DNA of 43,190 nt. It comes from an uncultured Thermoplasmata archaeon (GTDB taxonomy: Archaea > Thermoplasmatota > Thermoplasmata > Halarchaeoplasmatales > Halarchaeoplasmataceae). Location of the stretch: contig CAYVTG010000004.1 in assembly GCA_964454575.1 (NCBI GenBank), positions 1 to 43,190 on the forward strand, in the 5' to 3' direction. The notes under the pieces were generated by a model. The model saw only the letters and a program-made list of their open reading frames with translations. It did no database searches and was not told the DNA's origin. This document shows, in pieces, positions 1,993 to 37,187 of the stretch. Positions within the stretch are counted from its first letter, which is position 1. Each line of letters begins with the position of its first letter. Made by a program: the position numbers and the translations under genes.

Positions 1993-2213
1993 TATGACGG
2001 CCAAAGCGGTGGGGACACACCTGGTCTCATCCCGAACCCAGAAGTTAAGCCCACCCGCGTTCTCTGCGTTACTATGGTGCGCGAGCCCATGGGAAGCCTA
2101 GGTCCCTTGCGGACCCCCGGGTCGTTGGCTTAGGTTAGAAGCCTAGCTCCCTACGGGGAGACAGGTAAATCTAACTGTTTGAAGGCCATTTTCGATCCCT
2201 GGCCCGCTGTCAA
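1993..2213 (+). rRNA. rrf: 5S rRNA with ~100-nt insertion (about 2098-2200); mature ends approximate
   Basis: Canonical 5S motifs ACGGCCAAAGC, CATCCCGAACCCAGAAGTTAAGCC and helix IV ATGG-TGCGCGAGC-CCAT GGGAA. Helix I TGACGGC (1995-2001) pairs with GCTGTCA (2206-2212) and is extended by TGAGTAAT/ATTACTCA (1986-1993/2213-2220). A T-run follows at 2227. Confidence 0.93.
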
Positions 2214-2284
2214 TTACTCACTCTACTTTTTATCGATCAATCGATAAGCTAAACTAAAGCTTTAAAAATATTATAACTATGCCT

Positions 2285-14749: not shown

Positions 14750-14777
14750 ATGTCGTAAAATGTATCTTATACGACGT
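14750..14777. other. Candidate tyrosine-recombinase (Xer/dif-like) site
   Basis: ATGTCGTAAAA-TGTATC-TTATACGACGT: 11-6-11 layout, arms 9/11 inverted match, spacer close to the TGTATA spacer of E. coli dif. Confidence 0.55.
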
Positions 14778-15115
14778 TAAGTATTTATACTAAAACCTAA
14801 GACGTCGGATTTACTAATACAAATTACGAACATAATTTTTTCGAAAAAATTTCCCGGAAAAACAAATATATTCTGTAAAATATCTAAGTGCAGGAAAATC
14901 CGGCAAAGATCTTCCGAAAACACAATTGTAGTATAAATGCATAACAATGGGTAACCCTATCATCGCATTAAATAAACCACTAAACCAAACAGCCAAATAA
15001 TAAATAATAAAAAACAATTCACGAACATGTTGAATATACACAAAACCACGATTTACCCATACACCAATAATATGTATACCTTTACCACAACCGCACAAAT
15101 AATACTTTAAAACCA

Positions 15116-25490: not shown

Positions 25491-25695
25491 GCCATCGTAG
25501 CTTTCTCACAATCTAGAACGAAGATTCCAAGAAGCTAAGATGACTCACTCCGTTCGCCATCGTAGCTCAGTCGGAATTTAAACAGCAAATTCCAACAACC
25601 TACGAAGGCTCATTCCATTCGCCATCGTAGCTCACTCGGAAAAACGAACAGATTTTTCCAAGAAGCGACGATTCGTTTCACTCGCCATCGTAGCT
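25491..25695 (+). repeat. Tandem array of tRNA-Thr 5'-end duplications separated by ~52-nt structured units
   Basis: GCCATCGTAGCT starts at 25491, 25556, 25621 and 25684 (the tRNA itself); periods 65/65/63. Confidence 0.92.
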
Positions 25696-25755
25696 TAGCG
25701 GTAGAGCGGCTGGTTTGTAACCAGCAGGTCGGGGGTTCAATCCCCTCCGATGGCT
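25684..25755 (+). tRNA. tRNA-Thr(TGT)
   Basis: Acceptor GCCATCG/CGATGGC, anticodon arm GCTGG-tt TGT aa-CCAGC, T-loop TTCAATC; CCA not encoded; T-rich tract follows. Confidence 0.96.
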
Positions 25756-33178: not shown

Positions 33179-33251
33179 TAGCCCCGCCCGGATTCGAACC
33201 GGGGACTCAGGCTCCAAAGGCCTGAATGATTGACCGCTACACTACGGGGCT
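33179..33251 (-). tRNA. tRNA-Gln(TTG)
   Basis: Acceptor AGCCCCG/CGGGGCT (A1-U72, typical of archaeal tRNA-Gln), anticodon arm CAGGC-ct TTG ga-GCCTG, T-loop TTCGAAT. Confidence 0.96.
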
Positions 33252-33382
33252 AGTGAACGAAGTGAGCTAGTGCCGTAGAAGGAGGAATCTGTGATTCCTG
33301 CGCACTACGGGGCTTTTGTGTTGCAAAACCCCCGAGTATTTGGAATTGCTACTCAATTCCGAAACACTACGGGGCTTTTGTG
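33240..33382 (-). repeat. Tandem array of tRNA-Gln 5'-end duplications separated by ~50-nt structured units
   Basis: Top-strand CACTACGGGGCT at 33240 (tRNA), 33303 and 33365; periods 63/62. Confidence 0.9.
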
Positions 33383-33426
33383 GAACTTTGCACTCAGTTG
33401 AGACAGTGGTCTTTAATAAATATTTT

Positions 33427-35166
33427 TCATAAGAACAGCACTATCAGCGTTGTCGCAAGAGATTGTACTGCGAAAGTCAATGCAAGTGTAAGTGGTACCA
33501 TCTGGTAGATGGTCTCGGCCACCGCGTTCAAACGGTGTGAACCAGTGGGACCCATGAGTGAAAAGTTACACAGTTCTCCGGTGAGCACACCCATCTGAAC
33601 AAGCTCTAGATCAGATATGGCTCTTTCAGTTACTTCACGTACATGATCTTTGATCTCGTTATGATCCATCACTTCTCCAACCGGATTGTAATCCTTAGTA
33701 AGTGTATTGACCTCATGGCTGTCGGATGTCATCACTTCGGAAACATCTATTATATCGGATATCTCTTCCTGGATAGCCTCTCTTAATCCTTGAACCATGT
33801 TGTTACCATCGATAAGAATGAAGGCATTCTTTTTACCATCGGCCTCGAAGACTGCAGCTTTGATACCTTCTCCACCTATTCCGTCAGACTTTTTTAATCC
33901 TTTTTTAGCCGCGACACCAAGTTTCACATCTGTTTTTTTCAACTCTTTGACATCGTTCATCAGATCGTTTGTGACACCCATCAAGCTCCTGTAGCGTCTA
34001 GAGGGATAATATAACTCTAGTGCACCCCGTTGGATACAGTTGTGAGTATCGACGAGTGCCATATCAAGGAAGCCTTTGTTTACAGCTTTCAAGCTGATTA
34101 TCTCTCCTACAGGTGCATCTATGTCTTCGGTAGGCTTGGGAGAAAAAGATGCAGTTAAAAATAGTCCATCGCCGAACATCTGAGCACCTCCTGCAACCTG
34201 TTTGTATTTAGTTAAAAATGAAGTCCCTTTCCGAGAATATTTAAAGTCATTGAAGCGTTTATCTATATCCTCTGTCAATAACTTACAATCCTTTTCCTTT
34301 ATAGGATTTTGTACATGTGTCGACGGGCCGTGGAACGTGAAAGTCATACCGAATTTATCCTCTAACTCTTCAGCCACTATTTCACTTAATCTTGAACCGG
34401 CTATGCCTTTGATCGGACCCGGATGGATGCACGGTACAACGAATAACCCCTTCGATCCTCTTTTCGATTTGAAGGAGAAAACAGTATATTTTACATCTCC
34501 TTTTATCGCGGTTTTCTTGAATACATCCTCAAGTTGTACCTCACCCACTTCTTTTCCTTTGAGTACTTGAAATGCGATCCTCAGCATGTCCATGGTGGAT
34601 ATACCGAAATCCCTTAGAAAAGGCCTGTTTACGATGGCCATGAAAACCACTATCGATGTGAGTCCTATCAGAGAGATTACGAAGAAATAGATTATATCCA
34701 AAAGATTTATACGATAATAATAATGGATGATGGGAAGTGCTATAATAGATTGGAAAAATGCATATGGAAGAGCTTTGAATACGTGTGCGATAAACAAAGT
34801 TCGGATTATCAGGTATCTCAAAGACAAGGGAACTGCATAAACTGTGATCAATATGATCTTAGTACTCAAACTGAAATTCAAGTAGATCAGAGATAAAAAT
34901 ATTATCACTCCCAAAGATACGATGGCTATCAAAGTAGATTGCCCGAAGTTTATATCCTCTTGATAACCCTTCAGTAAGGGCATCGTGATAGCTGCGAGAA
35001 ATGTAGGGATAAACAACAAGAAAAAAGTCTGGACAAGGCCTTGGACATCGTTTGAAAATATGATCAAACCGGCGACAAGACTCAATATCAACATCGAAGG
35101 TATCTGTATGTAGAGTGGTGGAGACTTAAAAAAATTCAATCTGTGTTTGTGTGCGTGTACAAGCAC
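33427..35166 (-). CDS. DUF2070 membrane protein
   Basis: N-terminal TM helices, then HPGP, H..STH..NP, DTHN, DGNN, TSDSH.VN and a C-terminal TM helix. Confidence 0.85.
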   Translation of the reverse strand: MLVHAHKHRLNFFKSPPLYIQIPSMLILSLVAGLIIFSNDVQGLVQTFFLLFIPTFLAAITMPLLKGYQEDINFGQSTLIAIVSLGVIIFLSLIYLNFSLSTKIILITVYAVPLSLRYLIIRTLFIAHVFKALPYAFFQSIIALPIIHYYYRINLLDIIYFFVISLIGLTSIVVFMAIVNRPFLRDFGISTMDMLRIAFQVLKGKEVGEVQLEDVFKKTAIKGDVKYTVFSFKSKRGSKGLFVVPCIHPGPIKGIAGSRLSEIVAEELEDKFGMTFTFHGPSTHVQNPIKEKDCKLLTEDIDKRFNDFKYSRKGTSFLTKYKQVAGGAQMFGDGLFLTASFSPKPTEDIDAPVGEIISLKAVNKGFLDMALVDTHNCIQRGALELYYPSRRYRSLMGVTNDLMNDVKELKKTDVKLGVAAKKGLKKSDGIGGEGIKAAVFEADGKKNAFILIDGNNMVQGLREAIQEEISDIIDVSEVMTSDSHEVNTLTKDYNPVGEVMDHNEIKDHVREVTERAISDLELVQMGVLTGELCNFSLMGPTGSHRLNAVAETIYQMVPLTLALTFAVQSLATTLIVLFL

Positions 35167-36856: not shown

Positions 36857-36917
<61 letters not shown>

Positions 36918-36932
<15 letters not shown>

Positions 36933-37187
36933 TACCAATTTTTCATTTTTCGAGGCCGGGATTTGTTTCACGAGCTAAGACACTTCTTAGCGAGCGGTTA
37001 GAATGTTGAACGAAGTGAGGCATTCTGAGTTGAATCCGGCCGGGGCGCCATACCGATTTTTCATTTTTCGAGGCCGGGATTTGTTTCACGAACATGAATA
37101 CGTTTTATTCATGTGAGCGCACTGAATAATGAGCGTAGCGAGTTATTGAGTACAGAAGGCTGGCCGGGGCGCCATACCAATTTTCAT
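36918..37187 (+). repeat. Tandem array of tRNA-Asp 3'-end duplications with structured variable units
   Basis: GGCCGGGGCGCCATACC at 36920, 37038 and 37162 (periods 118/124); the first two copies share ~55 nt. Confidence 0.92.

Follow-up and report, generated by a model that had tools for sequence, protein, structure and literature searches.

Which process places copies of the start of a tRNA gene in front of that same gene, and do such copies form working parts of the precursor RNA or repeats that turn over at the level of the DNA? This question is raised by the tRNA-Gln(UUG) gene of an uncultured Thermoplasmata archaeon, which lies within the window, i.e. the whole stretch of 43,190 nucleotides that was analysed. 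An initial annotation of this locus had proposed that the 5'-end of the gene is repeated at 63/62 spacing. Indeed, the first 12 nucleotides of the tRNA (AGCCCCGTAGTG) occurred exactly at 33240, 33303 and 33365, the latter two copies being located 63 and 125 nt upstream of the gene on the same strand (spacing 63 and 62), with 0.04 matches expected and none of 100 shuffles of the window reaching the three matches observed. The following features were retrieved:

33179-33251, minus strand: tRNA-Gln(UUG) gene (ARAGORN; Rfam tRNA model, 61.6 bits)
33240-33251, minus strand: nucleotides 1-12 of the tRNA (AGCCCCGTAGTG), part of the tRNA gene and master copy of the repeat
33252-33302, minus strand: proximal cassette, type B, delimited by sequence and folds
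33252-33265: tail or loop of type B, with plus-strand GAACGAAGTGA at 33255-33265
33266-33278 (plus-strand coordinates): inverted copy of the tRNA start in type B
33284-33298 (plus-strand coordinates): hairpin GGAATC-TGT-GATTCC of type B
33303-33314, minus strand: first upstream exact copy of tRNA-Gln nucleotides 1-12
33315-33364, minus strand: distal cassette, type A, delimited by sequence, fold, an alignment of 12 homologues and pair counts
33314-33328: small leader helix TTTTG/CAAAA of type A
33324-33337: inverted copy in type A
33342-33360 (plus-strand reading): hairpin GGAATTG-CTACT-CAATTCC of type A
33365-33376, minus strand: second upstream exact copy of tRNA-Gln nucleotides 1-12
33411-33428, minus strand: BRE/TATA-like element GAAAAATATTTATTAAAG, read from the sequence, a putative promoter

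In the sense direction, the GAAAAATATTTATTAAAG element is followed by a leader of about 34 nt, copy 2, cassette A, copy 1, cassette B and the tRNA. The intervals between the copies were 50-51 nt long and non-coding, and in each of them, a GGAA..TTCC hairpin was combined with an inverted, imperfect version of the tRNA start and a tail rich in pyrimidines. Cassette B consisted, on the sense strand, of the hairpin GGAATC-ACA-GATTCC, CTACGGCACTAG (an imperfect inverted copy of CT plus AGCCCCGTAG) and the tail CTCACTTCGTTCACT. The long fold-back of this proximal unit onto the tRNA end (CTACGGGGCTAGT / GAACGAAGTGA / GCTAGTGCCGTAG; 33243-33278) and its GGAATC-TGT-GATTCC hairpin, both reported earlier, were present, as was every other detail that the initial annotation had listed for the locus. 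Cassette A was composed of the hairpin GGAATTG-AGTAG-CAATTCC, ACTCGGGGG and the small helix TTTTG/CAAAA, which runs into the next copy; as had been noticed, this distal unit does not contain the GA-GNA motif, a TGTTG loop replacing the GA..GNA..GA loop of the proximal one. A cassette identical to the proximal type B was present on contig C97 and in congeners. The Gln stretch represents a tRNA-Gln(UUG) 5' leader region filled by two non-coding palindromic cassettes of about 50 nt.

The window contained arrays at two other tRNA genes:

25491-25755, plus strand: Thr array of three units of 63-65 nt, each beginning with GCCATCGTAGCT, followed by tRNA-Thr(UGU) at 25684-25755
36857-37171, plus strand: Asp array of mirror type, consisting of tRNA-Asp(GUC) and then two different multi-hairpin cassettes (36930-37171)

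The Thr array is real, given four exact copies of GCCATCGTAGCT at 25491, 25556, 25621 and 25684; the same search of the window retrieved two unrelated one-mismatch matches elsewhere (0.11 expected). Its architecture is that of the Gln array, in agreement with the initial annotation. Moreover, TCGGAATT..AATTCCAA was common to Thr unit 2 and the distal Gln unit, and local alignment of these two units gave a score of 13, compared with 6.6 +/- 1.3 for shuffled sequences, with one of 2000 shuffles reaching 13. The cross-locus similarity is therefore significant against shuffled controls, the opposite outcome being the one that the annotation had named as fatal to its claim, and unit sequence is shared by different tRNAs in the form of hairpin cores found across loci. 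The statement that each arm tracks its own target held in part: the arms do follow the local tRNA, but a target was not supported, since the 12-mers are direct same-strand copies between the putative promoter and the gene rather than antisense guides, since the complementary arm pairs with the adjacent copy within the array, and since no guide-RNA family matched. As to the Asp array, each of its cassettes ends in a copy of the tRNA 3'-end together with its 44-nt T-rich trailer, these 3'-end copies being CCGGCCGGGGCG at 37036-37047 and a version with one mismatch at 37160-37171. The first Asp cassette harbours the loop GAACGAAGTGAG (37008-37019) on the sense strand of the tRNA, and the same loop occurs in the proximal Gln cassette.

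Two other ways of reading the arrays were considered. A CRISPR-like reading was rejected, the 'spacers' being conserved cassette types common to several genomes and the 'repeat' being the tRNA start. An informal look at the array as an intron of a split or intron-bearing tRNA, inserted at position 12/13, revealed no bulge-helix-bulge.

Inspection of the other tRNA genes indicated that a view restricted to the Thr and Gln loci is too narrow, with at least 12 of 34 tRNA genes affected at the 5'-side, 10 of 34 at the 3'-side, and several families of the class involved. The genome (1.87 Mb, 133 contigs) contained 34 tRNA genes above the Rfam cut-off. Upstream copies of the gene's own nucleotides 1-12 (at most one mismatch, within 500 nt) amounted to 20 at 12 genes (1 of 1022 in a cross-tRNA control), and downstream copies of its own last 12 nucleotides to 12 at 10 genes (2 of 1052 in the control). 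The 5' arrays belonged to Thr, Gln (two genes), Ala (two), Arg (two), Ser (two), Val, Met and Tyr. These counts are minima, because the Glu, Asn and Leu leaders, which display the same hairpin grammar, hold decayed copies. Of 73 GGAA..TTCC hairpins, 34 were located no more than 500 nt from a tRNA gene, in a zone representing 1.8% of the genome; related modules were found away from tRNAs too. Copies of 5S rRNA ends were not encountered near 5S rRNA. Finally, the block formed by cassettes A and B was 93% identical between the Gln(UUG) locus and the Gln(CUG) locus on contig C97, whereas the tRNA bodies of these two genes, as read by eye, differ far more.

Several other arrangements of hairpins and tRNA sequences were observed in this genome. 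On contig C40, a second, nearly complete tRNA-Ala(GGC) copy was located about 255 nt upstream of tRNA-Ala(GGC) (14764-14835, minus strand), with a 48-nt insert in its T-loop that consists of two hairpins of the GGAA..TTCC type; this copy may represent a gene with an intron or, alternatively, a 3' cassette whose first gene end has been lost. On contig C91, a copy of the 5'-half of tRNA-Ser(GCU) (2137-2221, minus strand) occurred 173 nt upstream of that gene, comprising nucleotides 1-12, 13-22 and 26-37, interrupted by two hairpin inserts and ending at the anticodon loop. The 46-nt intron of tRNA-Thr(GGU) on contig C36 (17515-17632, minus strand) contained a hairpin of cassette type, GAGGAA..TTCCTC. 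On contig C12 (33640-35742), an IS element, of which the terminal inverted repeat is CCCAAGTTTGACA, splits a 101-bp tandem hairpin array that was likewise encountered behind two tRNA-Ser genes. Lastly, a 54-nt module of two hairpins was present in frame within a TnpB-like ORF on contig C93 (L095; approximately 790-850), as a tandem array at the start of contig C35 (L096; 40-260), and as single copies on contigs C9, C26 and C28.

All 66 distinct 5' cassettes, collected from the 5' arrays of the present genome and from loci of relatives, were ordered as copy, short linker, hairpin, linker, inverted copy and pyrimidine-rich tail, and in 57 of them the hairpin was perfect over 5 bp or more. The length of the repeated core varied between tRNAs, from about 10 to 24 nt. 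One 21-nt hairpin core, (G)CAGGAATCAnAGATTCCT, was flanked by arms matching Gln, Ala, Arg and one additional type of tRNA; in a single public MAG, it was present at the arrays of Gln, two Ala genes and probably Leu. Type A was examined through an alignment of twelve units (nine genomes and one metagenome contig). The inverted copy paired with the upstream copy, forming a hairpin of 19 bp, in 98.2% of the cells and with the downstream copy in 99.4%, compared with at most 59% when the partner was slid by one to three columns. The two copies fit the inverted arm equally well; where they differ, this arm fits the tRNA-side (downstream) copy better, as judged by eye. In the base helix, which resembles an acceptor stem, nucleotides 3-7 and 9-15 pair with the inverted copy, and true double-sided changes comprised two pairs only in each pairing model. 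The small helix that follows the inverted copy was found in at least six complementary versions (TTTTG/CAAAA, TTTTGT/ACAAAA, AAAGTGG/CCACTTT, AATGTG/CACATT, AATTTGC/GCAAATT and AATTTGT/ACAAATT), and most helices kept a central mismatch opposite tRNA nucleotides 3-5.

The question whether the folded form is an RNA, and of which strand, was approached through wobble pairs and folding energies. All twelve type A sequences allow a G12.U40 pair on the sense strand of the tRNA. Conversely, in 41 helices between inverted copy and copy, wobble-compatible mismatches favoured the antisense strand 22 times and the sense strand 11 times, many of these helices being copies of one cassette. As the sign is opposite in the two kinds of helix, the wobble evidence is mixed and no conclusion on the strand was drawn from it. 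Compared with shuffled sequences, the Gln array folded with z = -6.4 on the sense and -5.3 on the antisense strand, and the Thr array with z = -2.9 and -4.9, respectively. In absolute terms, the plus strand of the Gln array was slightly more stable (-59.6 versus -51.7 kcal/mol), as was the antisense strand summed over 21 junctions (-648 versus -539 kcal/mol). Searches against Rfam gave no match to the cassettes, either at the gathering score or at E-values up to 1.

These absolute energies are among the points that would speak for antisense or guide RNAs, transcribed from the strand opposite to the tRNA and pairing through their arms with the tRNA 5'-end; the GA-NN-GNA-NN-GA capped loop, borne by the plus strand, is another. 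Yet, no promoter-like element was noticed for that strand, the T runs fall on it, and the presumed guide sequence is engaged in pairing inside its own hairpin. Furthermore, neither C/D nor H/ACA boxes were seen by eye, the Rfam searches remained without a match, and loops of the same type occur on the sense strand at tRNA-Asn. We consider guide RNAs of this kind very improbable.

The placement of the promoter-like element suggests that the array is transcribed together with the tRNA. At the Gln locus of all relatives, with anything from zero to four cassettes, this element comes immediately after the stop codon of the ORF upstream. Judged from its sequence, it is probably the promoter of the whole array plus the tRNA. 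Because this conserved element is located upstream of the entire array, the latter is most likely transcribed as a long leader and subsequently cut off. Array-less tRNA genes possess an A/T-rich, TATA-like box about 30-60 nt before nucleotide 1. Similarly, a TATA-like box was found 10-75 nt before the first copy in eight of ten arrays inspected, with none between array and gene, the two exceptions being Ser(CGA) and Ala(GGC). By eye, the first copy occupies the position at which the tRNA starts in array-less orthologues. In the 35 5' arrays (5311 nt), runs of at least five T were less frequent on the sense strand than runs of at least five A (7 versus 17), whereas the reverse was true for the 3' arrays (23 versus 11), of which the units sit beyond T-rich terminators. 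The scarcity of sense T runs in the 5' arrays indicates a transcription constraint, and thus allows a role as RNA. An archaeal RNase P RNA gene was present as well (186 bits).

Such a role would be that of working modules of the pre-tRNA leader, each unit folding into a long hairpin of which the base imitates the acceptor stem, as in t-elements. These modules could serve tRNA maturation or dosage, as an extra RNase P or RNase Z site, a decoy or a folding and stability device, or they could be released as small hairpin RNAs. The placement of the arrays between promoter-like element and tRNA, with the first copy where the tRNA otherwise starts, argues for this reading, as do the 19-bp hairpin of type A beginning with acceptor-stem bases, the G.U pair on the sense strand in all twelve sequences, the covariation of the copies with the tRNA, the paucity of sense T runs and the strong fold of the sense leader (z = -6.4). 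In turn, the 22 to 11 excess of antisense-favouring mismatches, counts that are not independent, and the lack of an Rfam family match argue against it, and arrays are absent from 22 of the 34 tRNAs of the present genome. The occurrence of the same modules in inverted form behind 3' terminators, and apart from tRNAs, is difficult to reconcile with leader modules too. We regard this reading as doubtful, albeit worth serious attention, and a further difficulty emerges from comparison with relatives.

A locus search of 41 genomes gave matches in 38, mostly via the tRNA itself, and the cassette matches came from the same family. At tRNA-Gln, the order of the cassettes was A,B in the present genome (G000) and C,B,A in the congeners G001 and G004, and their number was three in G015, four in G007 and one in G020. 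Cassettes were absent from the orthologous locus of the congener G002 and from that of G011, G023 and G017, belonging to the same family; the G002 locus was treated as orthologous because the same upstream ORF and promoter-like element were read there. Presence, number, order and the type of the tRNA-proximal cassette hence vary, which argues against working leader modules. Type A was found in 10 of 44 genomes of the family (13 further pattern matches were not cassettes) and at one locus only in JGI metagenomes, too few for statistics. When the tRNA start is different in another genus, so are its direct and inverted copies (GTAGTG/CTACGG, GTGGTG/CCACGG, CCCGGTGGTG/CCACCG and GTAATG/ATATTCGG). 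In contigs of related strains from public DNA runs, the Thr array either skipped 63 nt or was longer by a unit of about 65 nt, a weak support for variation in unit number, as each variant was represented by one low-depth contig aligned at 85% likeness.

Beyond the family, a sample of 14 loci (twelve Gln and two Glu genes), taken from 13 further families of the class, was examined, and seven of these loci, in five families, had one or more copies of the tRNA start upstream. An exact search for the 21-mer (G)CAGGAATCAnAGATTCCT in 185,579 species genomes retrieved 31 loci, 18 of which were in MAGs labelled Thermoplasmata or Thermoplasmatota, including Candidatus Halarchaeoplasma and Candidatus Saliniplasma. 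The other 13 consisted of one Poseidoniales, one Halobacteriales, one 'Methanobacteriota' and one Nanoarchaeota MAG, and nine bacterial records that look like chance matches. In the Halobacteriales MAG (L033) and the 'Methanobacteriota' MAG (L041), a GCAGGAATCAAAGATTCCTGC hairpin was located beside tRNA-end copies; as neither MAG belongs to the Thermoplasmata, other halophilic archaea may possess the family, or its hairpin core, as well.

The orientation of the motifs differed between the two gene ends. In 5' arrays, CGGAA..TTCCAA was found eight times in sense and never in antisense orientation, whereas 3' arrays had four antisense occurrences and one sense occurrence. Purine-rich loops of the form GA-NN-GNA-NN-GA, for instance GAACGAAGTGAG and GAGCGTAGCGA, showed the inverse strand orientation: the loop motifs M1-M3 gave eight antisense matches upstream of tRNAs, and the motif GAGCG..AGCGA nine sense matches downstream. 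As hairpins and loops switch strand between 5' and 3' arrays, the family is mirror-symmetric about the gene, with tRNA-Asn, which has GA-NN-GNA-NN-GA loops upstream on the sense strand, as an exception. These purine-rich loops contain GCGNAGC, an unusually stable DNA mini-hairpin. That the family is mirrored about the gene and that its 3' units come after terminators is more in keeping with DNA than with a single RNA role.

At the level of the DNA, one possibility is that the units are mini-cassettes or scars of site-specific recombination, by a tyrosine recombinase using the tRNA gene end as attachment site. The folded palindrome would then perhaps be an attC-like or CTX-phage-like substrate, and gene-free cassettes would be stacked in the way of integrons or Xer-exploiting elements. 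In line with this, identical copies of the gene end separate distinct cassettes in the manner of att sites, the palindromes are imperfect and repeatedly have a central mismatch opposite tRNA nucleotides 3-5, and the same cassette occurs at two loci that have the 12-mer in common; in addition, the genome encodes two proteins resembling XerA or integron integrases, the smaller of which (183 amino acids) is encoded beside a tRNA gene with a 3' array. The repeated core, however, varies in length from tRNA to tRNA as given above, neither cargo nor an integrase lies between the repeats, the integron-integrase model reached 222.8 bits, below its cut-off of 265, and viral contigs gave no matches to two cassette patterns. 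Nor did an informal look bring up an R'/R'' signature of attC. Site-specific recombination of this type seems quite unlikely.

The search for an enzyme yielded an IS200-type Y1 gene in two copies and two XerA-like recombinases as candidates, all unconnected to the cassettes. The only type of Y1 transposase in the genome is an ordinary IS200 (104 bits), which scored 33 bits with the REP_Tyr_transpos model (cut-off 80). One copy is located on contig C5 (L045; 1393-1887, minus strand), has end hairpins of its own (CCCCAA..TTGGGG) and lies about 310 nt behind an intron-bearing tRNA-Glu gene, the leader of which has a decayed cassette array; the second, identical copy is on contig C21. The 183-amino acid XerA-like recombinase comprises the catalytic domain only (C44, L047; 1450-2001, minus strand; 217 bits, cut-off 220), and its gene adjoins an intron-bearing tRNA gene, tRNA-Lys(CUU) according to ARAGORN, with a 3' array. 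The second XerA-like protein, of 374 amino acids, which gave the 222.8 bits with the integron-integrase model (TIGR02249), is encoded on a contig of 1.7 kb without adjacent cassettes. No enzyme or donor element linked to the cassettes was found in these searches, and viral contigs had zero matches both for the hairpin core and for the pattern of the B tail plus the Gln start.

Taken together, the cassettes constitute a lineage-specific family of hairpin modules of halophilic Thermoplasmata, stacked at both ends of tRNA genes. The reading that we favour, to which we give an even chance, is that of fast-turning DNA-level repeats, an archaeal, two-sided analogue of the tRNA-linked repeats of Escherichia coli. 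It is favoured because presence, number and order vary within the genus, because the modules are mirrored at both gene ends, because 3' units sit behind terminators, and because modules occur away from tRNAs. According to the mechanism envisaged for such repeats, cassettes would enter, leave and be reordered through recombination at the duplicated gene end. Direct and inverted copies may be kept matched to the tRNA via gene conversion or template switching against the master copy, which is under selection. As the 5' arrays are placed between the only putative promoter and the gene, they would be transcribed passively as a long structured leader, to be removed presumably by RNase P.

Several points weigh on the other side of this DNA-repeat reading, among them the lack of a linked enzyme or donor element, the zero matches in viral contigs and the paucity of sense T runs. 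The reading also offers no account of how one hairpin core gains arms fitted to different tRNAs. Moreover, the conserved pairing (98-99% versus at most 59% when slid), the six or more versions of the leader helix and the constant G.U pair (12 of 12) are also expected from selection on RNA. A bolder explanation would be an active, self-customising system, in which the core moves between tRNA genes and gains its direct and inverted copies of the gene end by templated synthesis, making it a new type of mobile element targeted at tRNA ends, and/or in which RNase P and RNase Z cut the transcribed units into RNAs mimicking the acceptor stem, which would titrate away nucleases or enzymes that bind tRNA. 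Such a system appears unlikely. Whatever its nature, the family is apparently undescribed; full-text literature searches retrieved no description of such tRNA-end arrays in archaea.

If the arrays are inert, they offer a natural example of concerted evolution, in which short direct and inverted copies track the end of an essential gene, and they indicate that a tRNA gene tolerates a strongly folded leader of 60-330 nt. Should they be mobile, they represent a novel mode of tRNA gene-end targeting; should they function as RNA, archaea would have their first leader modules derived from tRNA. The arrays are relevant for tRNA annotation, as they may appear as gene fragments or as false 'split' or intron-bearing tRNAs, and may cause contigs to break at tRNAs.

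Several known systems resemble this family in part. Integrative plasmids and viruses of archaea and bacteria leave partial tRNA genes as attL/attR duplications, and here too direct repeats of part of a tRNA gene flank inserted DNA, with stacking being possible. In contrast with these duplications, the inserts are about 50 nt long, form regular arrays and include an inverted copy of the site, and no integrase, cargo or donor was found. The extragenic palindromes known as REP, BIME and REPIN, moved by RAYT transposases, share with the cassettes their short imperfect palindromes, the compensatory upkeep of hairpins, the clustering in arrays and a fast turnover, but the arms of the cassettes are customised to the adjacent tRNA gene and no RAYT was found. 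A hairpin imitating the acceptor stem, in a precursor beside a stable RNA, is reminiscent of t-elements, which are tRNA-like processing signals of Haloferax 5S rRNA and plant mitochondria; however, no T-arm mimic was evident, and relatives differ in the units and can do without them. Integrons, archaeal ones included, and CALINs form arrays of cassettes with attC sites between them. Likewise, the present cassettes are separated by imperfect palindromic sites and the genome harbours XerA/integron-integrase-like genes, although no ORF cassettes are present, the repeated core is a tRNA gene end, and the integrase model stayed below its cut-off. Box C/D and H/ACA guide RNAs are set apart by their boxes, of which the cassettes have none by eye, the cassettes being without a family-model match as well.

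The closest parallel is provided by the tRNA-linked repeats (TLRs) of E. coli (Egan and Landy 1978, as cited in PMC8144298). These comprise 22 units at ten loci, most of them without known function, and the units end in 18-19 bp identical to the 3'-end of the upstream tRNA or rRNA gene (PMC8144298). TLRs are transcribed along with their operon, and the placement of the promoter-like element suggests the same for the present arrays. Both systems consist of short non-coding units in or beside tRNA or rRNA operons, carry the end of the neighbouring gene, occupy several loci per genome and have a largely unknown function, and the array at the 3'-end of tRNA-Asp is a direct counterpart of a TLR. 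The units of the Gln and Thr arrays differ from the TLRs described there in that they copy the 5' 12 nucleotides and are located upstream, in the leader, whereas TLRs copy the 3'-end and are located downstream. Furthermore, compared with that description, the archaeal family adds an inverted copy, resulting in a palindrome, and hairpin cores that are common to different tRNAs. The E. coli TLRs, without known function since 1978 by the same account (PMC8144298), gain a much richer comparative system whichever reading of the arrays is true.
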